Shown: positions 921-60,955 of the stretch, one piece after another
Position numbering within the stretch: the stretch's first letter is position 1
Layout: each line of letters begins with the position of its first letter
Virus record (IMG/VR): IMGVR_UViG_3300037088_000232
Direction: 5' to 3' (one strand)
Length of the DNA: 64,000 nucleotides
Source of the DNA: a virus
Notes under the pieces: model-generated
What the model saw: only the letters and a program-made list of their open reading frames with translations
Told to the model about the DNA's origin: nothing
Database searches by the model: none
Position numbers and translations under genes: made by a program

Positions 921-959
921 GTTTTAATTAATAAATTCCAAAAAATAATAACCGAATGA

Positions 960-2393
960 TCTCATGTAGATAGTAGTAAACAAGTAAAATTAAGATATTA
1001 TAAGTGGCCCAATGCCACCAAATATATTACCTGTGATGACGATGACCATCAAAGAGATGGAAAGTATGTTACATGGGATGGGCGATCAGTTAAATCAGTT
1101 CCCACCAAAAATCCAAATCGTTATTCCGTCTATGATTACATAGATGAATTACCTCAGGAAGAACAGGATATTATTTTTCAATATAATGAACCTGATATAT
1201 TTTTCATCGATATTGAAAATGAAATTATAGACAAAAAACCAGCTCCTCATTTAGCTGAAAGTGCCATACAATCCATTTCCATTGTCAATAAAGATAAAGT
1301 TCTGGTAATGGGGACTCAGGAATTATCTGAAGTTATTTCCAAATCCATTGAAGAAGATATAAATAATTATTTCGCCAAATTCGGAACTATTTATCAGTTC
1401 AAATATATTCATTTCAAAAGTGAATATGAAATGTTATTGAATTTCTTTGTGAAATTTGTTCCGAGAATGCCAGTTTTAACTGGTTGGAATTTTACCGAAT
1501 ATGACTGGGTTTTTCTTGTTAATAGAGCTCGTAAACTTGGAATAGATCCGAGTGTAGCTTCAGTAACAAAATTACTGAGAGAACCTTGGGATATGGAAAA
1601 AAAGACATATTGTGAATTACCAGCTCATCGAATGGTTGTTGACTATATGGAACTATTCAAAAAATGGGATACATCCATTAGAGTTAAGGAATCAATTAGT
1701 CTGGACTTCGTATCTGATAATGTTCTTGGAGTTAAGAAAGTTAATTATGAAGGAAGTCTTAAAACCTTATATAATACAGATTATAAGAAATTCGTTTATT
1801 ATAACGCGGTTGACTCCGTACTTGTTCAAAAGATTCATGAAAAGACAAAATTGATCAATATTTTATATGGTATTTCAACTCTTTCGAGAGTAAAAATTGG
1901 GGATTCATACAGTACCTTACCTGTAACAGAGGGAATTTTAAGAAGAAAACTGAAAAAAGAGAAGAATGTTGTTCTTTGTAGATTAGACCGTTCTGAAAAT
2001 GTAGTGGATGTTGAAGGTGTTTTGGGTGGTTATGTTAAAGAACCAGTTAAAGGTATGAGCCATTGGACACCCTGTTATGACTTTAAGAGTTTGTATCCAA
2101 CCTGTATGATAATGTTCAATATCTCTGTCGATAGTTATAAAGGTATCATTTCGAGTGATAAGAAATATGCCATATTCAATAATAAGAAAATTGAAATTGA
2201 ACCAACCGACATTGTTCTATTAAATGGGGCTGTATTCCGTAATGAAATTGGAGTAGTAAATCAGGTTATGAGCCTTATCTATGACGATAGACAGAAATAT
2301 AAAAAATTCATGTTAAAAGATGGGGCTGTTCTGGATGAATTAAAAAGTGAGGAATCTAAATTGATTGCTGAATTGGTTGGGGAATTTGAGTGA
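960..2393 (+). CDS. family-B DNA polymerase (T4 gp43-like) internal fragment: 3'-5' exonuclease domain through motif A; no initiator codon, no motif B/C
   Basis: Exo I FIDIENE (1203-1220), Exo II LTGWNFTEYDWVFLVNRARKLG, Exo III YYNAVDSVLVQKI, motif A DFKSLYPTCMIMFNISV, pre-motif-B DDRQKYKK then stop; frame open from 960 but first ATG is 1308, after exo I. Confidence 0.85.
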   Translation, partial: SHVDSSKQVKLRYYKWPNATKYITCDDDDHQRDGKYVTWDGRSVKSVPTKNPNRYSVYDYIDELPQEEQDIIFQYNEPDIFFIDIENEIIDKKPAPHLAESAIQSISIVNKDKVLVMGTQELSEVISKSIEEDINNYFAKFGTIYQFKYIHFKSEYEMLLNFFVKFVPRMPVLTGWNFTEYDWVFLVNRARKLGIDPSVASVTKLLREPWDMEKKTYCELPAHRMVVDYMELFKKWDTSIRVKESISLDFVSDNVLGVKKVNYEGSLKTLYNTDYKKFVYYNAVDSVLVQKIHEKTKLINILYGISTLSRVKIGDSYSTLPVTEGILRRKLKKEKNVVLCRLDRSENVVDVEGVLGGYVKEPVKGMSHWTPCYDFKSLYPTCMIMFNISVDSYKGIISSDKKYAIFNNKKIEIEPTDIVLLNGAVFRNEIGVVNQVMSLIYDDRQKYKKFMLKDGAVLDELKSEESKLIAELVGEFE

Positions 2394-2893: not shown

Positions 2894-2948
2894 CAGATAT
2901 TCAAAAAGGTTACAAAAATTTTTAATATATAAAGAAAAAATCTTTCTT

Positions 2949-4268
2949 ATGTTGTATTCATTCTCAGAATTTTTGAATGAAAGATATGGTCAATTCAATG
3001 ATTCGATAAAATTTACTGATTGGTCAGAATTTAAGGAAAAGTTAAAAAATTCCATAAAAACTGGTTTTAATACTGAAGAAGAACTCGTTAATTTGATGGG
3101 AATGGACTTTAATAAATATACTCAAATCAGAGAGAATATGATTCTTAATTGGAAGGATTCAGTTAGTAAATCTTTATTACATACTGTCGCTCAGATAGGA
3201 CAAAAAATTCCAAAGGAGGGAGCTAGCATTTTTAAAGATCTCAGACAACAAACAGCTATGTTAATTGTTGCCTCTGGTGGATTAGAAAGTAGAAATGTGT
3301 TTGGTGATGTGAATTCTACAAATGGACTTAGATTTTTAAATAGATTTACGGATCTTGAAAAAATTAAAAATACAAACCCTAAAAGTACTAAATATGATTT
3401 TGATCTCCACAAGGATGTCGTGAAAAGATGGGTTGATTTTGATGGTATTCCAGCCTATACGATAACAAATAATTTATCAATTAAGAAAGTTAATAACATA
3501 GTTCAATATGTTTGGTTATATTCCTTCTATCACCATTATAAAATAAAAAAAGATAAACCGAAACTTCCAAAGAATTTATATAGGGGAATAAGGGTATTCC
3601 AAGGATTAAAAGGTAAAGAAATTGAACAATTAAGAAAAGTATCACAAGAACAAGCTAAAGGGATTGATGATAAACATACTACTTGGGTCAAAACTTTCAT
3701 TGATAATTTGATTCAATTTATCGTTGAGAAAGGAATGTCAAAAATATCGGATGGAAAATTCTTATCTTTTACCGAATCAAGGGATATAGCTGCTTATTTC
3801 GCAAATAAAGAGGGTATTATTTTGAGAGTTGATCCGACTAAGGTAAAAATAGTCACTTCACCAAAGACAGAAGAATTTTTTGGAGAAGTAGATTATGTTT
3901 CTGGTAAAAAAGAAAAAGAATATATCATAGAAATTCCAGTAAATTACAAATTTACCATAGATGATATAGAAATTGTGGATGGCGATTATTGGATCGGAGC
4001 AAATAGTCCATTATCGGTTCAATTCTTCGATCATGATGATAAAAAGGCCAACTATGAATTAGATGGAATAAGAATAGAATCTCAGTATGTTTGGAGAAGT
4101 AATACAAGTGGTGGAATCGTATTTAATAATTTAGATTCGAAAGGATATGAAAGTTGGGGAATATCGAGGCGTGAATTTAAGAAGAAATTCAATGTAGATC
4201 CTATGCCAACCGAAGAAAATTTAAATAGAATAAAAGATTTTAAGATATCTAATACTAAAAGATGGTAA
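2949..4268 (+). CDS. CTS-tagged ADP-ribosyltransferase, R-S-E type (T4 Alt-like)
   Basis: Start chosen at internal ATG giving N-terminus MLYSFSEFLNE (T4 CTS-like). Upstream part of listed ORF 2559-4268 is antisense of two minus-strand ORFs. Motifs LYRGIRV (Arg), FLSFTES (S-x-S), EKEYIIEIP (E-x-E + hydrophobics) with Alt-like spacing. Confidence 0.55.
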   Translation: MLYSFSEFLNERYGQFNDSIKFTDWSEFKEKLKNSIKTGFNTEEELVNLMGMDFNKYTQIRENMILNWKDSVSKSLLHTVAQIGQKIPKEGASIFKDLRQQTAMLIVASGGLESRNVFGDVNSTNGLRFLNRFTDLEKIKNTNPKSTKYDFDLHKDVVKRWVDFDGIPAYTITNNLSIKKVNNIVQYVWLYSFYHHYKIKKDKPKLPKNLYRGIRVFQGLKGKEIEQLRKVSQEQAKGIDDKHTTWVKTFIDNLIQFIVEKGMSKISDGKFLSFTESRDIAAYFANKEGIILRVDPTKVKIVTSPKTEEFFGEVDYVSGKKEKEYIIEIPVNYKFTIDDIEIVDGDYWIGANSPLSVQFFDHDDKKANYELDGIRIESQYVWRSNTSGGIVFNNLDSKGYESWGISRREFKKKFNVDPMPTEENLNRIKDFKISNTKRW

Positions 4269-4618
4269 ATTCTATGAAATATCTAAAAATGTTTGAAGAA
4301 TATAAAAATTTAAATCCTAATTTTTATAAATGGTTTGATGAAAGTAAAGTCGTAGATGAAAATAATCATCCATTAATTGCTTATCACGGAACAGGTGAAT
4401 ATTATAAATCAACTATTGATAAAATATTTGATTGTAGTAAAGGGTGTTGGTTTACTGAATCATTAAAGGTTGCTAAAGTTTTTACACACAATAAATTAAA
4501 TCCGAAAATTTTAAAAGTTTATTTGAAAATAGAAAATCCAAAGATTTATGAAACTTGGTTTGATTATATGAATGATGTTAAGGAATGGAAGAGTGAGATA
4601 ATTAATATAAAGAATTAG
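4262..4618 (+). CDS. small ART-fold-like protein (H-G-T / WFTES motifs), possibly truncated
   Basis: IAYHGTGEYY ... CWFTESLKVA; 118 aa; stop/start overlap with upstream gene. Confidence 0.35.
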   Translation: MVNSMKYLKMFEEYKNLNPNFYKWFDESKVVDENNHPLIAYHGTGEYYKSTIDKIFDCSKGCWFTESLKVAKVFTHNKLNPKILKVYLKIENPKIYETWFDYMNDVKEWKSEIINIKN

Positions 4619-4703
4619 AAAAGATTTTATTATGTTTTACCCGAATTATATTAAGAATATTAAAAATGATGGAAGTTGGGATATAGATGATTCTAATATT
4701 TAT

Positions 4704-5438
4704 TCATAACAAATGATAATAATCCATATTATAAAATTCTTCATCATTTTCAATTCCTATGAAATTTCTTCCTGTATTCTTAGCTGCTATACAGGTTGTT
4801 CCAATACCACAAGTGTTATCCAGTACTAATTCTCCGGGATTCGTAAAGGTCAATATTAACCATTCACACAATTTTACTGGTTTTTGGGTTCTATGTACAG
4901 GTGGCCAAGGTTTTTCGAAGTTTAAAACACTTTTCGGATATTTTTGTGTAGTTCCTTTTCTTATATCTGGAATTTTCGAATCAAAATAACCATAATTTTG
5001 ATTTTTTCCTTCTTTGAAAGAAAAAGCGTTACCTTTTGAATGCTGAGGTGTCCCCTCTGTAAATTGTGGATGGTAAGTTGGTTGTTTTTTATAGAAAATC
5101 AAAATTTGCTCATGGTTTCTAAGTATTTGTTTTTTTGCATTTAAAAATCCAGTGACCCTTTCTCCTTTTTTCCATATCAAATCATAACGATACATTTTCT
5201 CATTAGATAAAGCAAGTTTGTGAGCGAACATTCCCTGAGCGAATAAAGCAATACATCCATTCGGTTTTATAATTCGATTGTAGTTCTTCCAGAGTAATTC
5301 AAATGGGATCATAATATCTTTCTTGTTTCTTGTGACTCCGTATGGTAAATCAGCAAGAATCATATCAACAATATGAGTATCAATATCAGGCATTAGATGT
5401 AAACAATTATCGAAATATATTTTATTTATATCAATCAT
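4704..5438 (-). CDS. DNA N6-adenine/N4-cytosine methyltransferase, beta class
   Basis: Motif IV DLPYG precedes motif I DNTCGIGTT (FxGxG) near C-terminus; 244 aa. Confidence 0.8.
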   Translation of the reverse strand: MIDINKIYFDNCLHLMPDIDTHIVDMILADLPYGVTRNKKDIMIPFELLWKNYNRIIKPNGCIALFAQGMFAHKLALSNEKMYRYDLIWKKGERVTGFLNAKKQILRNHEQILIFYKKQPTYHPQFTEGTPQHSKGNAFSFKEGKNQNYGYFDSKIPDIRKGTTQKYPKSVLNFEKPWPPVHRTQKPVKLCEWLILTFTNPGELVLDNTCGIGTTCIAAKNTGRNFIGIENDEEFYNMDYYHLL

Positions 5439-5829
5439 TTAACAACGATTTTAATTTTTGAGATCTAATGAAATTTTGTATTTTTTCTGATATTTCATGA
5501 CCCGAATAACAATGAGATACGAATCCATCTGGTCTATTCATAAAGTCAGTTGTAATTATATAACAAGAATTATACATTTCAGTACCAGCTGCACTTTTTG
5601 TTCCAATTCCGATTATTGTTTCCCCGAATTTTGGTTTTCTATAATTAAATTTCCATGAATCCCAATTCATTTCTTCACAATATTTTTTATTTTCTTGAGA
5701 TAAAAATTCCAAAATTCCATCAATATCTTTTTCATTGGTTTCAAATAAATTACACCAAATATGATTTTTAATATCTGGTTCAACCGATTTCCCAATCAAA
5801 AATTTATCTAAAAAATTCATATCAATCAT
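5431..5829 (-). CDS. member of tandem paralog family (C-terminal KL..IL.D motif)
   Basis: N-term MIDMNFLDKFLIGKSVE, C-term SQKLKSLLND; overlaps neighbours by 8 nt. Confidence 0.5.
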   Translation of the reverse strand: MIDMNFLDKFLIGKSVEPDIKNHIWCNLFETNEKDIDGILEFLSQENKKYCEEMNWDSWKFNYRKPKFGETIIGIGTKSAAGTEMYNSCYIITTDFMNRPDGFVSHCYSGHEISEKIQNFIRSQKLKSLLND

Positions 5830-6193
5830 TTAATATTTTTTCTAATTTTTTGTATCTAATATGATTTTGTAGTTTTGCAACTAAATCAATTCCACGAAAA
5901 ACACGAGTTGCTAATCCACTAACATTAATATTTTCCAGATTAAACTCAGTTGTAAATAATTCACAAGAATGTTCGTGCCATAGTCTAATTCCTAAAATCG
6001 TTTCTCCGAATAGTGGTTTATAAGGTGGTGGGATATAGTCAAAATCCATTTCACGAGAATATCTTTGATTCTCTTCATTTAAAAATTCTAAGGTTTCATC
6101 ATCAATCTCAATAATATCATTTCTAATATTATTAACATCCTGAATCATAGATTCAGATTTTCCGATCAAAAATTTATCCAGGAAATCCATCAT
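5822..6193 (-). CDS. member of tandem paralog family
   Basis: N-term MMDFLDKFLIGKSE, C-term RYKKLEKILND; paralog of 5431-5829. Confidence 0.5.
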   Translation of the reverse strand: MMDFLDKFLIGKSESMIQDVNNIRNDIIEIDDETLEFLNEENQRYSREMDFDYIPPPYKPLFGETILGIRLWHEHSCELFTTEFNLENINVSGLATRVFRGIDLVAKLQNHIRYKKLEKILND

Positions 6194-6509
6194 TCAAAAT
6201 ATCATTGAGTTTTTCAGATCTTATGTAATTTATTAATCTGGCTTCTAATATATCTGTGTCATTTCCAAAAAACACTTTAAATGTATTATTTTGTCTTGAA
6301 TTATATAAATCCACGAATTCTGATAAATAATTATAATTATATTCGGATTTTCCAGTTATAATAGTTATTTTATTCTTGGATATTCCTTTCTTAAATAAAT
6401 TATCTAAAAAACTTAAACCTGTCTCAATAGATTCGGATTTTCTTTTATCCAATTCAAAATCATGATATTCTTTCCAGAAATTATCCCAATTAAATTCATT
6501 TTCATTCAT
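6174..6509 (-). CDS. member of tandem paralog family
   Basis: N-term NEFNWDNFW, C-term RSEKLNDILNDGFPG. Confidence 0.5.
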   Translation of the reverse strand: MNENEFNWDNFWKEYHDFELDKRKSESIETGLSFLDNLFKKGISKNKITIITGKSEYNYNYLSEFVDLYNSRQNNTFKVFFGNDTDILEARLINYIRSEKLNDILNDGFPG

Positions 6510-6777
6510 CTAAAATAGTTTTAAGTGTATTTGATCTGTCTTTGTTTTTTGTTATTGCTTCTGACATAACAAAATAATCATCTAAATCCCAATCAAATAT
6601 TGTAAAATTATTTTTTATTAAATTTGAACTTAAAAGATCAGGACGATTTTTTCCTTTTATACAATCATCCCATAAGTCCCAATTTAGATTATACATATTC
6701 TTATAATATTCTTTATTTATTCGTCTTAGTCTATGTATACTATTTATCAAATTGGGTTTTTTTATCATCCTTTTCAT
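6502..6777 (-). CDS. member of tandem paralog family
   Basis: NWDLWDD motif, C-term DRSNTLKTILDE. Confidence 0.45.
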   Translation of the reverse strand: MKRMIKKPNLINSIHRLRRINKEYYKNMYNLNWDLWDDCIKGKNRPDLLSSNLIKNNFTIFDWDLDDYFVMSEAITKNKDRSNTLKTILDE

Positions 6778-6937
6778 CTAAAATGATTTGAAGTTTATCT
6801 GACCTATCTTCATTGATAATTCTTGATACTATTGAATCAGTAAAAGTATTAATGTCATTTTTTTCTATTAACTGAGGATTGTGATAAGCATCGTTAAGTT
6901 CTTTTTCGATCTCTGTCCAAAATTCTTTTGAAATCAT
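6740..6937 (-). CDS. member of tandem paralog family (short)
   Basis: C-term DRSDKLQIILDE; 65 aa. Confidence 0.4.
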   Translation of the reverse strand: MISKEFWTEIEKELNDAYHNPQLIEKNDINTFTDSIVSRIINEDRSDKLQIILDEKDDKKTQFDK

Positions 6938-7518
6938 CTGACTCTTTCTAACTTATCTTTATCAAATATTGCTTTTCTTCCAAAAACAGCCAATCCGAGT
7001 TGATATGTTTCAAGTCCATCATCAATGTCATGCCATCTGTTCATAAATTCAGATTTTGGTATATATCCGACATTAAATAAAGACGGATCACTAATTAATA
7101 AAAGTTTATCTGTGTATCCAATTACAGCCACAAAATGTCCATCTCCCCAAGTTTCTTTATATTTTCTTTTGAATTTAAAATCAGTTCCCCAAGCTTGTAT
7201 CAAAACAATTACTGGAATGTTCTTATCCACATATTTAATCAGATCATCAATTGTCATATCTTGTTGTAATTCAGTCTTTAGATCATGATAATGAAAAAAT
7301 TTCACTATGTTTTTTACAAGTGTTCCTTCTTCTTCGTTAGTTTTCAAAATTTCAACTAAATCAGATTCACGAAAATTTTCACCATAAAATTCCATTGTTC
7401 TTTCTACTATATCACAACCACAAGTATATGAATAGGCTTGTCTTGTTATTGGAAAATCAATAATTTTGATATTTTCATCATCTTCGAAATCCAATTCATC
7501 AATGTATAAATTTGTCAT
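6934..7518 (-). CDS. papain-like cysteine peptidase, C39-like
   Basis: Cys motif YSYTCGCDIVERTMEFYG, His motif GHFVAVIGY, then ISDPS; 194 aa. Confidence 0.55.
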   Translation of the reverse strand: MTNLYIDELDFEDDENIKIIDFPITRQAYSYTCGCDIVERTMEFYGENFRESDLVEILKTNEEEGTLVKNIVKFFHYHDLKTELQQDMTIDDLIKYVDKNIPVIVLIQAWGTDFKFKRKYKETWGDGHFVAVIGYTDKLLLISDPSLFNVGYIPKSEFMNRWHDIDDGLETYQLGLAVFGRKAIFDKDKLERVR

Positions 7519-7525
7519 AATGTGA

Positions 7526-8410
7526 TTATATATTAAATATTTTCTTGAATGGTTTTAAATTTCCATCTGGATTGTGTTCTTTATATGAGTTATGATCATC
7601 ATAGATAGCGAATACTATCTTATGAAAAACCCCTTTATATTCAGTATCTAATAATTCTTTAAAGATTGAAGCTATCTGTTCGGGTGGATTTCCATAAGCA
7701 CCACAACCAAAAGCGGAAAGAACTAAATCTCTATGTCCATTCTCATGAGCGAATTGAAAAATCCTTCTTATTTTTTGTTTGGTTTTGGAGAAGTCATTTT
7801 CATTCATTCTTCTATTCTTCAATTCTGGTCTTTTTATTGCAGGTACAGATATAAAAGCACATTTGAATGGATGGGAGAGTAAATAATATCCATTTTTTTC
7901 AGAACCACGAAAAACGGTTATATCTTTTGAATAGATTGCACCATAATCACCCAATGGATATTTGTATTTAGAATTTTGTTCTATTCCATACTGATGAGCA
8001 TAATCAACATATTGATAAAGAGATTTAAATAAATTGGTTCTTCTGAATAAATTTTCTTCCTGTGCCGATGAACCATTTATTACACCACCACCGGGATTCT
8101 TATAACTGGCCATATTTAAAACTATCGGATTTTCCATCGTTCTTGCTACATCCAAACAATCAGCATCCATGACCAATATTTCAGTTTTAAAGTCATTTAT
8201 CCCCGTTGGGTCATAAATTGGGCCATTTTCAGTAAATAAAGAGTTCTGGCACACTTTCGAGTTGTCAATGATAACTTCTCCATCCGAGAAGTATTTTCCA
8301 TTCTTAACGATTTTAATCGTGTTTTCCCAAACATCAATCAAAAGTTCTTTTCTTCTGTTAAGATTTGAAGTTTTATAGGTTTGTGCCCATTTTATTGCAT
8401 CCCATTCCAT
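7526..8410 (-). CDS. bacterial-type poly(ADP-ribose) glycohydrolase (macrodomain, DUF2263/TIGR02452 family)
   Basis: PARG signature NPGGGVINGSSAQEENLFRR (GGG-x6-8-QEE) and LVLSAFGCGAYGNPPEQIA. Confidence 0.75.
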   Translation of the reverse strand: MEWDAIKWAQTYKTSNLNRRKELLIDVWENTIKIVKNGKYFSDGEVIIDNSKVCQNSLFTENGPIYDPTGINDFKTEILVMDADCLDVARTMENPIVLNMASYKNPGGGVINGSSAQEENLFRRTNLFKSLYQYVDYAHQYGIEQNSKYKYPLGDYGAIYSKDITVFRGSEKNGYYLLSHPFKCAFISVPAIKRPELKNRRMNENDFSKTKQKIRRIFQFAHENGHRDLVLSAFGCGAYGNPPEQIASIFKELLDTEYKGVFHKIVFAIYDDHNSYKEHNPDGNLKPFKKIFNI

Positions 8411-19434: not shown

Positions 19435-20340
19435 TTGATGATAACTACTTTTAATACATTCATATTAGAGAATAATCGTATTGATACTACCACATTATCA
19501 AAAGATGATGTAAAACGAATTATTGAAGAAAACTGTAAAGATTTCGATTATAATGATAAGAAAATTTATCGTGGAATATATCTTGAACAAAACCCATATT
19601 TAATAGATCCCAAAAAATATCATCGCCTTTCCGCAAACGCTGATAATTATTATAATATGATTGTAGATAATTCAATTTTATGGAAAGATTACCCGAAAAG
19701 AAAACACGCTTTGATTGGTACACTTATGTATTATCAAGCCGTACCTTATGGAACTGTTTTTAGAGTAATACCTTTTGATGGTGCCAAATTTGGTGTTGTT
19801 TCACAGGGAGATATGTGGCAATCATTTGATTATTTACAATCCAAAACTGGTATTGATGAATTAAATTATTTCGATATTTTGATTGATGATTTTCATCAAG
19901 CTTTGTTTGATGAAAAGAAACTGAATAATCTTGTTTATAATATATTTGTAAAACAGGTGAAAAAAATAGAAGATGAAATTAAAAAAGATCCTAACGGTTC
20001 ATCGAAGAAAATATCTCAATATTATCGTGGTTCTTATGATGATTATGTTGATTTCGGAAGAACTGGTAAGGAATATTATAAGAAATTCTTTAATTATATA
20101 TCTGACCAAATAGTTACAAAAAATAAATCATTACTGTCTGTTCTTGAAGATTTACTTTCACCAATAAGAAATGGATTTGAAGTTCTCAGTTATAAAGGAC
20201 TTTTGAATAAAAAAGTAAAAACATCTGGAGGTGTTCCTGAAGTATGGACAGATAGTAAATGTATATTAATTCCAGATTCATTGATGTTTGATCTCAATAT
20301 GAGAGATTTAGACATAACCAGTAACGGACTTCGTATTTAA
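19435..20340 (+). CDS. CTS-tagged protein, possible R-type ART (IYRGI motif)
   Basis: N-term MMITTFNTFILEN; KKIYRGIYL similar to 2949-4268 LYRGIRV; other ART motifs unclear. Confidence 0.35.
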   Translation: MMITTFNTFILENNRIDTTTLSKDDVKRIIEENCKDFDYNDKKIYRGIYLEQNPYLIDPKKYHRLSANADNYYNMIVDNSILWKDYPKRKHALIGTLMYYQAVPYGTVFRVIPFDGAKFGVVSQGDMWQSFDYLQSKTGIDELNYFDILIDDFHQALFDEKKLNNLVYNIFVKQVKKIEDEIKKDPNGSSKKISQYYRGSYDDYVDFGRTGKEYYKKFFNYISDQIVTKNKSLLSVLEDLLSPIRNGFEVLSYKGLLNKKVKTSGGVPEVWTDSKCILIPDSLMFDLNMRDLDITSNGLRI

Positions 20341-23187: not shown

Positions 23188-23688
23188 TTATTCCATTTCC
23201 AAAACATTCGATGGAATTAATACATTTTTGTTTATGATAACCCAAGCGATATTATCTCCTTTACCATTCAAATCATCTGGAATTTTAACTACATCATACC
23301 CCTCATTCTTTGCATGTGATACGATAAAATCACATTTATGGGTTTTTGACTGAATATCATATTGAAAAAGTCTACCAGAAGTAATATAATTTTCTAAATC
23401 TGTATCTTCTAATTCATCACCATAAATAATTTCATTTTTCACCATCCAACTATATAAATCATATCCGTCACTTAAATCTAAAATTGAGGCTCCATTTTTT
23501 AATTTAAAGGTTAATATATTATTTCCATAATCTTTGGCTACTGAACGAGAGGTACTGGTGTAAATACCTTTTAATCTCTTATCTGGTTCTATTTCACTCT
23601 CAGTTATATTTTCATTCGTTCCATGATATAAAGTAACTAAAAACAGTTCTGATGATTGTTCCTCGAATATTTTGAATTTCTTAATCAT
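23188..23688 (-). CDS. ART-fold-like protein (H-G-T / S-T-S / E-hydrophobic motifs)
   Basis: LYHGTNE ... IYTSTSRS ... KNEIIYGD; weak CTS-like N-term MIKKFKIFEE. Confidence 0.4.
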   Translation of the reverse strand: MIKKFKIFEEQSSELFLVTLYHGTNENITESEIEPDKRLKGIYTSTSRSVAKDYGNNILTFKLKNGASILDLSDGYDLYSWMVKNEIIYGDELEDTDLENYITSGRLFQYDIQSKTHKCDFIVSHAKNEGYDVVKIPDDLNGKGDNIAWVIINKNVLIPSNVLEME

Positions 23689-24812: not shown

Positions 24813-25616
24813 ATGAAACCTTGTGATATCTGTCTGGAAAAAGTTTGTAAAGGGCCGAATGGTCCGGGAACTTGTAATTGTGAAGAATGTTCCGTAAAAG
24901 ATACTTGTCCAAGGAAACTCCACGCTACCGTCAGAATTACTTTAAAATGTACTCAATCCTGTGGACATTGTTGTTATGAATGTTCTCCCAAGATGGATAC
25001 CCACATGACCATAAAAATGGCCAAAAAAGTTTCCGCTTTTCTTAAAAACAACGAAGTACAAATGGTTAATCTCATGGGTGGTGAAATTTTTTGTAATCCA
25101 CATTGGAAAAAAATTCTGGATTTAATTATTCCCTCAGTTCCTTTGGTTCGTATTGTATCCAATGGAGATTGGATTGAAGGATGTCCTGAATTCGCTGAAT
25201 ATCTCACCAAATTCAAAAACTGTTATGTCAGTATCTCAAAAGATGAATGGCATAACATGAAAAATGTTGATAAAGCTCTCAAAGTCCTCAAAGAAAATAA
25301 TATCCTTTTCAATACTCCTAAACACGAAGAAAAAGAAGAAAATTTAGTTCCTGTTGGTAGAGCTGAATTAAGTGGATTCGGTTTTTATGGAACTTTCGGA
25401 TGTTATTGTCATAATCCAGAAAAACAATATTCGTTTCTCATTGACGAAAAAGGTGATATTTTCAAATGTGGATTTGGTATATGGAATTACGATTCAATAG
25501 ATACTTATGTTGATGGTGGATTCACAACAAGATTTAAAGAATTCAACAAAGTTTTTTACGGAGTATTTATTCCCAGCTGTAGTTCTTGTATCAGATCTTG
25601 TAATAATTTCAAATAA
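24813..25616 (+). CDS. radical SAM enzyme with Cys-rich N- and C-termini
   Basis: CTQSCGHC = CxxxCxxC, LMGGEIF (GGE SAM motif); extra Cys clusters. Confidence 0.65.
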   Translation: MKPCDICLEKVCKGPNGPGTCNCEECSVKDTCPRKLHATVRITLKCTQSCGHCCYECSPKMDTHMTIKMAKKVSAFLKNNEVQMVNLMGGEIFCNPHWKKILDLIIPSVPLVRIVSNGDWIEGCPEFAEYLTKFKNCYVSISKDEWHNMKNVDKALKVLKENNILFNTPKHEEKEENLVPVGRAELSGFGFYGTFGCYCHNPEKQYSFLIDEKGDIFKCGFGIWNYDSIDTYVDGGFTTRFKEFNKVFYGVFIPSCSSCIRSCNNFK

Positions 25617-25620
25617 AAAA

Positions 25621-25646
25621 CCCCATTCAGATTTCTCTAAATGGGG
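25621..25646. terminator. hairpin terminator (mainly for minus-strand flotillin gene)
   Basis: ccccatt / aatgggg 7-bp stem; A-run 25611-25620 gives T-run on minus strand. Confidence 0.55.
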
Positions 25647-25729
25647 TCTTAAATCCCGTTTCACCCGTTTGTGGAGTCGTTTTAACGGAAGCGAACTCTA
25701 CACCTCTCCTTGACAAAGTAATGACTACT

Positions 25730-28057
25730 TTATTTTGATGTAGTTGGTGGAAGAGTTTTCTGATTTGGTGTCTGATTTGGTGTCATTAGTTTAGTAAGAA
25801 CACCTGACAGTAATCCACTATCACCGTTTGTTACCAATGTATCAGGTACTATTTTCACACCTCCTTGTGCTATTTTTTCAGCGACTTGAACTTGAATAAC
25901 TCCTTCTTGACCAATAGCTGATTTTTGTTTTTCGTAACCTTCTGCAGTGGCTCCCATCTTTGCCTCGATGGCTACCCCCTCAGCTTTACCAATGGCCTCA
26001 ATACCAGCGGCCTCTCCTTCTTTCTTCAATTTTGTAGATTGACCTTCTCCTTCAGCGAGTTTAATTGTCTTTAATTTGACATTCTCGGCCACTTTTACAT
26101 CAATTTCAGAAGCAACCAATTCTGGTTGTTTATTAGCTTCGGCTGTAGTTTTCTCCATAGAGATACGAGATTGTTGAGCTTTCTGTTGTTCAAAGTACAT
26201 TGCCTGTTGCTGTTGAGCGATAATTCTTTCAGTCTGAGTTTTCATCAAATCCTCTGGTAACTGAATTTGACAAATAAGAACACTTACTAATTCGACATGG
26301 TATTTCACCAATTCCTGACGAGCTCTATCTTCAGCCTTCTGTTGTTCTTCATGACGATTTTGCATGAATGCCATGGCTGATGTTGAAGATGCTTGATTAC
26401 GGAATGACGAGTCAATCATCGGGTGGATGACATGCTCGACTAAGTTCTGGATTGAACCAATTTTTGCTACCATATAAGGTGCTTGGTCAGGACGAATCCT
26501 GATAACAACCTTAACGGATACACTGATTTCAAAACCATCATGAGATACAACTTTCAATGGATCAAAACGAGTTTCTTTCGAATCATCCCAATCAATTGTA
26601 ATGTTAGTGGTATCAACCACATATGCGATATAAGCTCTACGGTTCAAGTAATAAATCCCCGGACCAGCTACTTCCTGTTGAATACCTCTGAATCCCTTAG
26701 GAACTACATATCTTTCGATTCCGATATCCAATCTTTTTTCGATTCCACCTGCTGTAACACTATCGTCTTGAACTCCTTCGGCACTTGGTGTAATAATTGG
26801 GGAAGATTCCTTTTCTTTCTCAGCTCTTGCAACATCATCAACCATTTCTTTTACCTGAGGTGGTTCATCTCCGACATTTGATACAAGAACGGCCACTTGA
26901 CCACGCTCAATTACAGCGACATCATCAAGTTCGACACTAAACATCAACGGATTGATATAGTATGTACCCGGCTTCAACACATCAAATTGAGGTCCACGTT
27001 GACCACCATTCTTTAAGAATGTTGTTAAATCTTGGAAATTATTATGTCCTTCAATTGGTTTAGCTACATATTCAGTTTCAGGTAAAGGTTTACCATCACG
27101 AGCGACAACGATACCAATTTTTTTATCTGGAATAACAATAGTTTCTTTAATTTCGACTTTGAATAAAGCCACATTGATACGATATTTACCCGGAAGTAAT
27201 ATGGTAGTCTGAGGCCCTTTTTCTCCACCGTTATCTAAGAAAGTTTTTCCATCTTCAAAATTCTTTTGACCATCAATATATTTGGCTAATAAACGACCAT
27301 CACTGATAGGTTTACCGTCTTGAGCGGTTACGATACCAATCTGTCCTTTTTCAATAACTGTGATTGGAACTGGTGTTACTTTAAATAAAAGAGTATTGAT
27401 ACGATAGTTACCCGGAGGTAAAATTTGAATTTGAGGACCTTTCTCACCACCATTCTTTAAAAAAGAGGCGGCATCTTGAAATAAATCACAATCAACTACT
27501 TTACCAAAAATACGACCAGATGGTACTGGTTGTCCATCAATAGATTCTACTATACCAATTTGATTCTCAGCAATAACTGTAACTGGAACTGTCTTTACAT
27601 TAAAAAGTAAAGGATTAATACGATAGAGTCCCGGTGGTATGATAGGAATTTGAGGCCCTTTTTCACCACCATTGGTTAAGAATAATTCTCCGTCTTGAAA
27701 CAAATTACATTCAATTGGTTTAGCGAAAATTTTCCCAGATGGAACAGGATCTCCATCCGATGAAACAACTAAACCGATTTCATTTGTACCAATAACTGTG
27801 AAATCCTGTTTCTTTCTTTTATAAATGAAAGGGAATAAGAAGTACAAACCCGGACCCATTGCCCTTGCTTGAACTCCAATTTGTTTACTCATGGCAAAAA
27901 CTCTGTTTTTCGGCATCTGTGCACCCATCCAGCGTCTTTCCAATACTTTAATTTCTTTACCACCCACAATAAGGATTGAACTCCAAATCAGGACAATAAG
28001 AAAGATGACAGCTATAGAAATACCTGCTATCATCAAATAAAATAAAACTGTAGCCAT
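25730..28057 (-). CDS. flotillin/SPFH (band-7) family membrane protein with four internal ~77-aa repeats and C-terminal A/E/G-rich flotillin tail
   Basis: N-terminal TM; repeats IGIV..DG.P.P.G...AK.I....FQD...FL.NGGEKGPQ...PG.YRIN.LLF (approx nt 26857-27787); AEGEGQSTKLKKEGEAAGIEAIGKAEG tail. Confidence 0.7.
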   Translation of the reverse strand: MATVLFYLMIAGISIAVIFLIVLIWSSILIVGGKEIKVLERRWMGAQMPKNRVFAMSKQIGVQARAMGPGLYFLFPFIYKRKKQDFTVIGTNEIGLVVSSDGDPVPSGKIFAKPIECNLFQDGELFLTNGGEKGPQIPIIPPGLYRINPLLFNVKTVPVTVIAENQIGIVESIDGQPVPSGRIFGKVVDCDLFQDAASFLKNGGEKGPQIQILPPGNYRINTLLFKVTPVPITVIEKGQIGIVTAQDGKPISDGRLLAKYIDGQKNFEDGKTFLDNGGEKGPQTTILLPGKYRINVALFKVEIKETIVIPDKKIGIVVARDGKPLPETEYVAKPIEGHNNFQDLTTFLKNGGQRGPQFDVLKPGTYYINPLMFSVELDDVAVIERGQVAVLVSNVGDEPPQVKEMVDDVARAEKEKESSPIITPSAEGVQDDSVTAGGIEKRLDIGIERYVVPKGFRGIQQEVAGPGIYYLNRRAYIAYVVDTTNITIDWDDSKETRFDPLKVVSHDGFEISVSVKVVIRIRPDQAPYMVAKIGSIQNLVEHVIHPMIDSSFRNQASSTSAMAFMQNRHEEQQKAEDRARQELVKYHVELVSVLICQIQLPEDLMKTQTERIIAQQQQAMYFEQQKAQQSRISMEKTTAEANKQPELVASEIDVKVAENVKLKTIKLAEGEGQSTKLKKEGEAAGIEAIGKAEGVAIEAKMGATAEGYEKQKSAIGQEGVIQVQVAEKIAQGGVKIVPDTLVTNGDSGLLSGVLTKLMTPNQTPNQKTLPPTTSK

Positions 28058-57033: not shown

Positions 57034-57654
57034 TTATTTACCCTTGTATATATTAATTATTTTTATCTGGTTATCATTAAAAACTATCCAATCCCATCTT
57101 TCATCTGATGACCATTCTATTTCATTCAAATAATGTATGGAATCATAACCCTGTTCAATTAAATATTGTTTGTAATCAAGTGTTAATTTCTTTTTATCAA
57201 ATGTGTTATCTTCTAATAGAAAATGATTCAATGAAATTATTTTATTTTCTCTATCGAATGGTGTTATATTACTATATGTTCTATATAATAAGTAATTCTT
57301 TTCAATGAATTCCTTGTCAACATAGTCATTTTCACCTCCCCATTTCAGCATATCCCTCACTAATTGACTTTCTCTCTTTTTTAAAATCTTGTTAACCTTG
57401 ATTTCAACTTCATAAACAACATAATTGGGTGGTTTTGAGAATAATCTTTCGGCCATTTTTTTATCGGGGGTGAAGTGAATTCCAAGAAAATCCATTAAAT
57501 GTACAACATTTCGGCTACTTCCTAATTTTTCATTTGAAAATTTATCGAATACTATTCCACTTCCATGATATAATGGACCAACTATATTGTTTTTTTTTTC
57601 AAATATGTAAAATTTCGTTACCATTTTATTTCCAATCTTGGTTTTAAATCCCAC
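57034..57654 (-). CDS. ART-fold-like protein, H-G-S paralog A
   Basis: GPLYHGSG ... VVHLMDFLGIHFT ... YVVYEVEIKV. Confidence 0.4.
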   Translation of the reverse strand: MGFKTKIGNKMVTKFYIFEKKNNIVGPLYHGSGIVFDKFSNEKLGSSRNVVHLMDFLGIHFTPDKKMAERLFSKPPNYVVYEVEIKVNKILKKRESQLVRDMLKWGGENDYVDKEFIEKNYLLYRTYSNITPFDRENKIISLNHFLLEDNTFDKKKLTLDYKQYLIEQGYDSIHYLNEIEWSSDERWDWIVFNDNQIKIINIYKGK

Positions 57655-59398: not shown

Positions 59399-60955
59399 TT
59401 ATATATTTTTATCAACTACCCATAAGTATTTAGCTGGTATGCTCTTTCCTTGTATGTAACAATTACCTGTAAATAAACTCATTTGGTCTTTATATAATAT
59501 ACCTAAATTCAAATCATCTGTATTTATACCCACAATCGCATATGGTTCTTTATCTGTTTTATCTATCTGCTTCCATACTTTTAATTCCTTTATTAATGAA
59601 TATAAAACCTCTTTGTTCGTAGACATATAGATTCTCGGTGGGTACTTGTGTCGAATATCTTCCGACTTGGATTTTAAACCATGTTTCAAAATATCATTTA
59701 ATCTGGACATTGGACAAGCATGATATAATGTATCTGGAATTAATACATACCCCTTACTCCACTTCGGAGAAATACTTAATGTATGTGTGTTCTTAATCCT
59801 TGTCATTGATGCCCTTGAATACCAACCAAATTTGTTTATGTATTTCAATAACTTGTCAATAAACTCTTTATCATCTAAATCTTCATACCACTTGTAAATA
59901 TCTTCATATTTATCATGACCTTTATAAATACCCCATATCGTTATGGATTCACCACTTATACCTTCTGGTCTGTCAATGTTAATTTCAGGAAACCTTTTTA
60001 TTAACTTGTTATACATAGTCTGACCATCTATCGATTCATTATTCTTCTCTAATAATACAAATTCAAATTCTCCAAAATTGATTATCATTCTATGATGATT
60101 TTCATAAATATTTTTACTCTTTCCATTGAAAGTTGTGTTTTCACCAGTTGCTATTTTTATTCGTTTAGGATTTGTTACCACATATTCATCAGCGAACTGT
60201 GCTCCAGTGTCCGCATTCCTGATTATTTTACAATGAATACTACTATCTGGAACTCGATTTAAACCCACACCTACATTCTCCCCATCTTCTTCCTCAATAA
60301 TTGTCGCTTTTATAAAGCATGGATATATGTAACCCTCTTGATTGTCGTATTTACTTTGAATTTCTTCCAATTCCTTATTCAATTCAATATCGTATTTTTT
60401 ATCCAAGTGTACAAATTCACTTAGTTTTGGACTGATTTCATCTATGTTCTTCTTACCTATCCAAAACAATAAATCCATCAATGTCTTTGATACTTCTTTC
60501 CAATTATCTGATTTCACCCAACTACTTAAATTATAATAACCAGTAGACTTACCATACTCCTTTTCTATGAAAGATAACATTCCATCCCATACCGACATAT
60601 CTACCGTCTTTAAAAATTCAATCTTGTCTTTTTCTATTTTCTCGTTATATTTCTCGTTAACCTCATTCCTTTCATTGTAATACGATCTTGGATAACATTG
60701 TGAATAATGTGTTGCAACATTCAGGTTTGAAAACCAAAAAGCATATTCAGCACCCATCTGACCAGAAGTATCATTCATACCATATTTGAATTCTGTGAAT
60801 TTATAAGGGCTTCCATGATAAACTACCAATGGTTTACCATTTTTATCCACTATTTTACTGGTCTTTTTATTCGGATGTTCCCAATCACCAAACCAATCCT
60901 TAAACTCTTTGGAATGAATGATTTTCTCATATGTTTCTTTGTCTAACTTCATCAC
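59399..60955 (-). CDS. hypothetical protein with N-terminal H-G-S segment
   Basis: 518 aa; LVVYHGSPYKFTEF near N-terminus. Confidence 0.4.
   Translation of the reverse strand: MMKLDKETYEKIIHSKEFKDWFGDWEHPNKKTSKIVDKNGKPLVVYHGSPYKFTEFKYGMNDTSGQMGAEYAFWFSNLNVATHYSQCYPRSYYNERNEVNEKYNEKIEKDKIEFLKTVDMSVWDGMLSFIEKEYGKSTGYYNLSSWVKSDNWKEVSKTLMDLLFWIGKKNIDEISPKLSEFVHLDKKYDIELNKELEEIQSKYDNQEGYIYPCFIKATIIEEEDGENVGVGLNRVPDSSIHCKIIRNADTGAQFADEYVVTNPKRIKIATGENTTFNGKSKNIYENHHRMIINFGEFEFVLLEKNNESIDGQTMYNKLIKRFPEINIDRPEGISGESITIWGIYKGHDKYEDIYKWYEDLDDKEFIDKLLKYINKFGWYSRASMTRIKNTHTLSISPKWSKGYVLIPDTLYHACPMSRLNDILKHGLKSKSEDIRHKYPPRIYMSTNKEVLYSLIKELKVWKQIDKTDKEPYAIVGINTDDLNLGILYKDQMSLFTGNCYIQGKSIPAKYLWVVDKNI

Follow-up and report, generated by a model that had tools for sequence, protein, structure and literature searches.

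A divergent R-S-E ADP-ribosyltransferase of a giant phage carries a putative capsid-targeting tag

What is an ADP-ribosyltransferase (ART) gene doing behind half a DNA polymerase gene in a phage genome, and why does its product begin like a protein destined for the head of phage T4? The question is raised by IMG/VR virus record IMGVR_UViG_3300037088_000232, a stretch of 64,000 nucleotides that we analyzed whole and call the window. A gene of 439 codons plus stop lies at 2949..4268 on the + strand, downstream of an N-terminal polymerase fragment. An original prediction, made from the letters alone, had described an Alt-like R-S-E ART with a capsid-targeting sequence (CTS), inserted directly behind a broken polymerase gene and followed by a second, miniature ART. 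Our own account is that the gene encodes an active R-S-E mono-ADP-ribosyltransferase with a CTS-like tag, which would be packaged, trimmed, and injected and would modify host proteins; we put the probability of this account as a whole at roughly 55%.

The open reading frame (ORF) and its motifs were borne out. The start codon at 2949 is that chosen by gene callers on four near-identical public contigs, and the same gene call stands on L002-L004. LYRGIRV begins at residue 210, FLSFTES at 271, and EKEYIIEIP at 322, and the candidate catalytic codons, all on the + strand, are those of R212 (3582-3584), S273 (3765-3767), E322 (3912-3914), and E324 (3918-3920). A word-indexed search returned 40 homologs of 34-72% identity, every one of them metagenomic and either labeled "hypothetical" or unnamed; several sit on contigs of 171-501 kb. 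When a profile of the catalytic region was searched exhaustively against 1.84 billion representatives, only 69 clusters were found, nearly all of one architecture and about 400 amino acids long. We counted conservation in a family alignment of 102 sequences, in which denominators vary by column: R212 is conserved in 93/94 sequences, S273 in 96/100, E322 in 101/101, and E324 in 98/101. The catalytic residues are invariant in alignment A1. The pattern of the R-S-E clade, an Arg on β1, Ser-x-[ST] on β2, and [QE]-x-E on β5, is present in full, with R212, S273/T275, E322, and E324 conserved at 96-100% (n = 102). Judged from the alignment, motif conservation is far above chance.

An AlphaFold2 model of the protein is confident (predicted local distance difference test score [pLDDT] of 89.4) and has the split β-sheet of the ART fold. 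The Arg is placed on the first strand and S-F-T on the second, followed by a helix; the fifth strand begins with E324, and E322 lies two positions earlier in a low-confidence loop. This layout, with Arg on β1, S-x-T on β2, and E-x-E on β5, is the canonical R-S-E arrangement (PMC7955679). The catalytic domain (residues 205-345; 3561..3983, +) is preceded by an N-terminal domain of helices and a small sheet (residues 12-204; 2982..3560, +), which bears a weak likeness to region 2 of sigma factors, and followed by a C-terminal β-rich domain (residues 355-439; 4011..4265, +) with modeled strands at 365-394 and 428-435, in which Y369, W382, and P418 are conserved across the family alignment. Conserved catalytic residues and fold together support the assignment as an R-S-E ART.

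Which known enzyme is nearest? A phmmer search of the protein against PDB sequences gave noise only, and Foldseek with the whole model against the PDB returned nothing significant, cholera toxin A1 appearing at rank 21 with an E value of 1.7. The ten most distant family members, when scanned with Pfam, offered no bridge to any named ART family, and tblastn of the protein against 50,697 phage records gave no match. The sole PDB sequence found by the family profile was 2kxi, whose E value was 0.035 when the profile covered the whole protein and 0.006 when it covered the domain; in the alignment, LYRGI is matched to LYRGI and SFT..IAkYFA to STT..IAKKFA. We checked the 2kxi chain as NarE with PF21641 (E value, 1e-47). 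The ART activity of NarE is specific for arginine (PMC4440719). Neither the NarE nor the Enterotoxin_a Pfam model matches the window protein. From these comparisons we conclude that it likely belongs to a divergent, unannotated family of the R-S-E clade, nearest to the NarE/enterotoxin group, and we consider it very probable that it is a functional R-S-ExE ART. By analogy with what is known of E-x-E enzymes, and from the link to NarE, we infer that it would be specific for arginine.

The phage that encodes this enzyme is a large one. The first 10.7 kb of the window is 99.8-100% identical to the public metagenomic contigs L002 (82 kb) and L003 (597 kb), and an identical 439-residue protein is also encoded on a contig of 736,551 bp. 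The nearest deposited genome is LR756501 (735,411 bp, "uncultured phage"), which we take to be the Mahaphage of the 2020 huge-phage survey and call Mahaphage throughout. Since the polB fragments of the window and LR756501 are 67% identical and 30 of the 108 window ORFs have homologs in LR756501, dispersed over its genome, we assign the window, which is AT rich with a G+C content of about 29%, to a huge phage of the Mahaphage clade. The ART-encoding phage is a giant bacteriophage of about 0.6-0.74 Mb.

The protein starts with MLYSFSEFLNE (residues 1-11; 2949..2981, +), a putative capsid-targeting peptide in which a protease is predicted to cut after L-N-E; these residues are poorly ordered in the model (pLDDT below 50). 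A listing of ORF N termini showed that about 20 window ORFs begin with such a tag. Tagged ORFs start at 19438, 22454, 28192, 37189, 37434, 38014, 38451, 52303, 52862, and 61126 on the + strand and at 23688, 24472, 55812, 56552, 57017, 57624, 58911, 59354, and 62455 on the - strand. Examples are MKTFTEFLLEA (37434, +), MRIKNYKEFITE (28192, +), MKYLKMFEE (4274, +), MITDFTDFLNE (24472, -), and MKNILTYNEFINE (56552, -). The carriers include ART-PolyVal proteins, a DnaJ-domain protein, a SprT-like protease, and many uncharacterized proteins. We expressed the tag as the pattern M-x(1-4)-[FY]-x(1-2)-[FY]-[ILV]-x-E, which matched 12 of 108 N termini in the window versus 8 of 733 internal windows. Because this regular expression was written after we had seen the window data, it was run unchanged on the whole Mahaphage genome, where it matched 68 of 968 N termini against a background of 1.07% (p = 3e-33).

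T4 proteins have N termini that resemble the window tags: MKTYQEFIAEA in IPII and IPIII, MKTFKEF in IPI, and MELITELFDE in Alt. The T4 sequence is an experimentally defined CTS that is removed by gp21, which cuts after Glu (bioRxiv 10.1101/2021.01.19.427310; PMC5694885; PMC3012670), and the CTS mediates the binding of Alt and the T4 internal proteins to the core (PMC5694885; bioRxiv 10.1101/2021.01.19.427310). Head-packaged ARTs are common among myoviruses (PMC9503650). The peptide in the window is likewise an MKTYQEFIAE-like sequence of about 10 residues that ends in [LIV]-x-E, and the tag is common to unrelated proteins of the same phage. Within the ART family, it is kept by close relatives; many distant members, such as P0098 and P0040, start at the conserved domain, and P0018 and P0020, which have long N-terminal extensions, retain L-L-T-E at the same junction. 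In the literature on huge and mega phages and on prohead-protease cleavage motifs, we found no description of CTS-like tags in these phages, and a search of the CTS literature yielded work on T4, P1, and SPN3US-type phages only.

A T4-type head is encoded in the clade. LR756501 has a T4-type head gene set in T4 order, namely, portal, protease, and Gp23 capsid. The portal gene lies at 71969-73795 (tblastn E value, 1e-26), an 807-residue gp21-like protease ORF lies at 73913-76336 (24913-27336 in L015), between the portal and capsid genes, and the Gp23-family capsid gene follows at 76415-78166 (Pfam E value, 2e-25). The protease ORF contains, 3' of its protease domain, about 14 tandem 14-residue repeats of the form ..I.Y(S/A)EYIAE.L.., and these EYIAE repeats are the tag motif itself, placed in an apparent scaffold region. 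Tag recurrence, T4 likeness, the Mahaphage head module, and the scaffold repeats make capsid targeting followed by proteolytic removal the reading that suits the tag best. That the tag recurs both in the window and in Mahaphage, and that the clade has a T4-type head module, support the CTS-like tag of the original prediction. Because its N-terminal tag resembles the capsid-loading tag of T4, the ART would probably be injected into the host; whether the complete T4 course of packaging, trimming after L-N-E, and injection applies to it is, by analogy, an evenly balanced proposition.

Several points weigh against this account. The 439-residue protein gave zero profile matches in Pfam, PHROGs, NCBIfam, and PADLOC, with none in Pfam even at an E value of ≤1. 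The NarE match is marginal; it spans the R and S motifs and stops short of the E-x-E region. The tag is present in only about one-third of the ART family (29/81 by the strict regular expression), and the expression was devised post hoc from the window, although the Mahaphage test is independent. The prohead protease is known from the relative LR756501 alone, and its match is weak (tblastn E value, 1e-3; Peptidase_S77, 22.9 bits versus a cutoff of 27). The head genes of the window phage lie outside the window, and no structural gene is found close to the ART gene within it.

A different explanation takes up some of these points. The ART may be active and not packaged, acting after its synthesis inside the infected cell, like T4 ModA and ModB; the tag would then serve some other targeting, to a compartment or complex, or the timing of degradation, or would reflect a constraint on translation initiation. 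This fits with the finding of no head gene near the ART gene in the window or in L007, L010, L011, and L012, with tags on proteins that would not readily be expected as cargo, such as a DnaJ-domain protein and a SprT-like protease, and with the many untagged members of the family. It fits poorly with the close match of the tag to the T4 CTS defined by experiment, with the [ILV]-x-E protease motif at the end of the tag, and with a clade that has a T4-type protease/capsid module whose scaffold repeats the same motif. We regard this explanation as unlikely, if still a serious one.

Two further alternatives concern the enzyme itself. The ART fold could act on a non-protein substrate, either DNA or RNA, as in pierisin, Scabin, DarT, and RNA 2'-phosphotransferase, or it could destroy NAD+. 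The triad found here is R / S-x-T / E-x-E, which is neither the Arg-His-Arg-Arg of Tpt1 nor H-Y-E, and the His next to the β1 Arg is absent. E-x-E is the signature of arginine-directed protein ARTs in the R-S-E clade, and the only sequence relative, NarE, is Arg specific; a non-protein substrate is improbable. The protein could also have the ART fold but no catalytic activity and serve in structure or binding, for example, as a decoy or a scaffold component, and its large extra domains would suit such a role. However, R, S, and both Glu residues are near-invariant among members with identity down to 34%, which is the pattern expected from purifying selection on catalysis, and we see very little chance that activity has been lost.

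For the active, packaged enzyme that we prefer, we infer catalysis, arginine specificity, packaging, cleavage, injection, and target as follows. NAD+ would be held by Arg212 on β1 and by the Ser273-Phe-Thr motif on β2. Glu324 at the start of β5 would catalyze the transfer, and Glu322 in the preceding loop, forming the E-x-E, would favor arginine acceptors. MLYSFSEFLNE would bind the prohead scaffolding core, and the ART would in this way be enclosed in the capsid; the prohead protease would then remove the tag after L-N-E, and the enzyme would reach the host together with the DNA. Once injected, the ART would, on the analogy of T4 Alt, modify at least one host protein at an early stage of infection, with the target chosen by the flanking N- and C-terminal domains. 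The next gene, which encodes a tagged small H-type ART (ART-PolyVal), is probably cotranscribed with it and is disabled here by a deletion of 62 nt.

Is the position behind the polymerase gene of any consequence? The N-terminal half of a T4-type family B DNA polymerase (polB-N) is encoded at 959..2393 (+), as identified by Pfam and PHROG matches and by comparison with Mahaphage and L002. The ART gene does not stand directly behind it, as had been claimed: 555 nt and two small ORFs on the - strand (2356-2634 and 2618-2893, the second with a signal-peptide-like N terminus) intervene. polB-N aligns to residues 15-500 of a 504-residue Mahaphage ORF, the two ending at the same place, and PHROGs already includes a family of N-terminal polB fragments 502 residues long. 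A search for the C-terminal half of polB found it neither in the window nor in the vicinity of Mahaphage polB-N. There is no ART homolog within 8 kb of Mahaphage polB-N (LR756501, 90-92 kb) or anywhere in Mahaphage, and the ART homologs of four other genomes are not near polB. Since polB-N has the same end in Mahaphage, which has no ART homolog, the split is older than the ART arrangement and unconnected with it. An Alt-family gene that split polB by its insertion, or one that marks an effector-acquisition hotspot, might have been suggested by an R-S-E enzyme with an Alt-like tag 555 nt 3' of an N-terminal-only polB ORF, but the idea can be dismissed given the fragment end shared with Mahaphage and with the 502-residue PHROG family, the lack of an ART homolog there or in the 50,697 phage records, homologs that lie away from polB in the four other genomes, and the lack of a PF03496 match or a credible hhalign alignment to Alt.

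The polymerase fragment has a history of its own. Compared to L002-L004, the window is without 42 nt at 958/959, and the TTG start and the first 14 codons of polB-N are lost; after the deletion, the frame is open, with its first start codon only at 1308. There is an apparent in-frame TGA at 956-958 because the window lacks these 42 nt, including the polB-N start. We considered this TGA as a recoded stop and rejected it, since the near-identical contigs show the 42-nt loss. The Mahaphage terminase homolog, for its part, is likewise broken up, with three pieces at about 700, 610, and 624 kb. Core genes split in this way, polB after about 490-500 residues and terminase into three pieces, may be a theme of the clade.

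The gene that follows the ART gene is a truncated, stand-alone ART-PolyVal gene at 4274..4618 (+), which encodes 114 amino acids from its likely start at 4274 (MKYLKM); an alternative ATG at 4262 gives an ORF of 118 amino acids (4262-4618). It contains AYHGT, with the His codon at 4385-4387 (+), and WFTES, and it had been described as a mini H-G-T ART-like ORF. The ART-like part of this description held up, with a match to PF18760 above threshold (E value, 3.6e-10; 41.2 bits versus a cutoff of 31.2); the "mini" size did not, the native gene encoding 165 amino acids. The window copy spans only positions 1-82 of the 140 in PF18760, and the domain is incomplete. The nearest database relative, P0041, has 165 amino acids, is identical over the common part, and covers positions 1-137 of 140 (E value, 2.8e-15). 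L002-L005 also encode 165 amino acids and keep 62 nt that are missing from the window. Compared to these contigs, the deletion junction, at 4612..4613 (+), is flanked by AAT microhomology and shifts the frame, and the orphaned 3' end, IRKDFIMFYPNYIKNIKNDGSWDIDDSNIYS followed by a stop, lies out of frame at 4614..4709 (+) and matches the C terminus of P0041. Because P0041 has 165 amino acids and the window is without the 62 nt, the "mini ART" is a damaged allele of a small stand-alone H-type ART; a naturally minimal ART of 118 amino acids is ruled out. The window form recurs exactly as P0105 (114 amino acids) on one 73-kb JGI contig, from which the window probably derives, and P0106, on a 6.8-kb JGI contig, has an in-frame deletion of 66 nt in the same 3' region. 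Either this 3' end is deletion prone in natural populations, or it is hard to assemble.

Pairing of the two genes is recurrent but not fixed. In the 421-kb relative L011, an 850-residue polyvalent protein with an ART-PolyVal domain comes right after the ART homolog, and in three other genomes the ART homolog has no adjacent ART-PolyVal. The domain is known as a module of giant phage polyvalent proteins, whereas here it makes up a stand-alone protein of 165 amino acids with its own tag. Further ART-PolyVal-type proteins are encoded on the - strand of the window at 57034-57624 (tagged), 59399-60955, and 23188-23688 (tagged). Two of the three exceed the Pfam threshold, and the one at 23188-23688 falls below it, at 28.2 bits. 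With these three, the window encodes at least five ART-fold proteins.

A promoter-like motif, TTAATATATA, at 2922..2931 (+) ends 17 nt 5' of the ART start codon. The window has 14 copies versus 1.46 expected, nearly all just 5' of ORF starts, with sites that include 2922, 19421, 22424, 28155, 52273, and 61111 on the + strand and 2670, 7527, 14982, 57047, and 58917 on the - strand; the 9-mer TAATATATA has 169 copies in Mahaphage. Judging by its placement, the motif is probably a phage promoter element. As a marker of tagged genes it was rejected (odds ratio in Mahaphage, 1.7; p = 0.09); it is a general upstream motif.

Other features of the window stand apart from the ART gene. About 3 kb 3' of it, on the opposite strand, are untagged genes for a microbial-type PARG/macro-domain protein (7526-8410, -; PF10021, E value of 1.5e-26) and a C39-like cysteine peptidase (6934-7518, -). 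Five small tandem ORFs on the - strand, at 5431-5829, 5822-6193, 6174-6509, 6502-6777, and 6740-6937, have a C-terminal K-L-x-x-I-L-[ND]-[DE] in common and resemble a paralog array. G+C content is 0.35-0.40 at 25001-28000 compared to about 0.29 elsewhere; the rise covers a 775-residue SPFH/Band-7 gene (25730-28057, -) and may reflect a recent acquisition.

The number of tags invites a broader proposal, which we offer tentatively. Phages of the Mahaphage clade may tag some 60-70 unrelated proteins per genome, which would dock on the tandem motif of the protease-scaffold fusion, be loaded, be cut at [ILV]-x-E, and be injected as an effector arsenal. In the window, about one-fifth of the ORFs carry the tag, and their products include at least four to five ARTs of two clades, the DnaJ-domain protein, and the SprT-like protease. 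If the proposal is true, the window ART is one member of the arsenal and the founder of an unrecognized R-S-E family. Within the first seconds of an infection, injected phage ARTs (prototype, T4 Alt) reprogram the host, and they are increasingly viewed as weapons in phage-host conflict. Surveys of phage NAD+/ADP-ribose systems that use Pfam, PHROGs, NCBIfam, and PADLOC would miss this family, since it is invisible to all four. As a simple sequence rule, the tag may allow capsid cargo to be predicted in uncultivated phages of 0.6-0.74 Mb, turning "hypothetical proteins" into a list of candidate injected effectors. The ancestral polymerase split, which was not made by the ART gene, corrects an attractive but wrong story.

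How does this system compare with known ones? It is already known that jumbo phages can encode several ARTs and that ARTs can be packaged in phage heads (PMC9503650); what is new here is the ART family, its architecture, and the scale of T4-like tagging in the clade. Compared to the group of NarE, cholera toxin, and heat-labile enterotoxin A1, the window ART differs in two long helices between β1 and β2, in extra domains of about 190 and 85 residues, in its phage origin, and in its N-terminal tag. The R-to-S spacing of NarE, 63 residues (R7 and S70), is akin to the 61 of the window ART. The tagged proteins of T4 have the same type of tag, M-K-T-[YF]-x-E-F-[IL]-x-E, on otherwise unrelated proteins; T4 has a handful of them, whereas the Mahaphage clade has about 20 in the 64 kb of the window and about 60-70 per Mahaphage genome, and many of these are enzymes.

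T4 Alt, with which the gene had been grouped, is not of the same family. Alt matches PF03496 (ADPrib_exo_Tox) at 124 bits and the window ART does not, and hhalign of the family profile against Alt gave a probability of 0.1, with no detectable sequence relationship; the claim of Alt or ADPrib_exo_Tox membership fails. Nor are the motifs spaced as in Alt, where R to S is about 26 residues and S to E is about 72 (R478, S503, and E576), compared to 61 and 51 in the window ART. In Alt, which has 682 residues, the ART domain occupies 374-614; in the window protein, which has 439, it occupies about 205-345. Yet Alt, too, is an R-S-ExE ART of a phage and starts with a peptide of about 10 residues that ends in hydrophobic-x-E (MELITELFDE), and its biology, with packaging in the scaffold core, trimming by the prohead protease, and injection (PMC5694885), is what we propose for the window ART. 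The likeness to Alt is plausible as a functional analogy.

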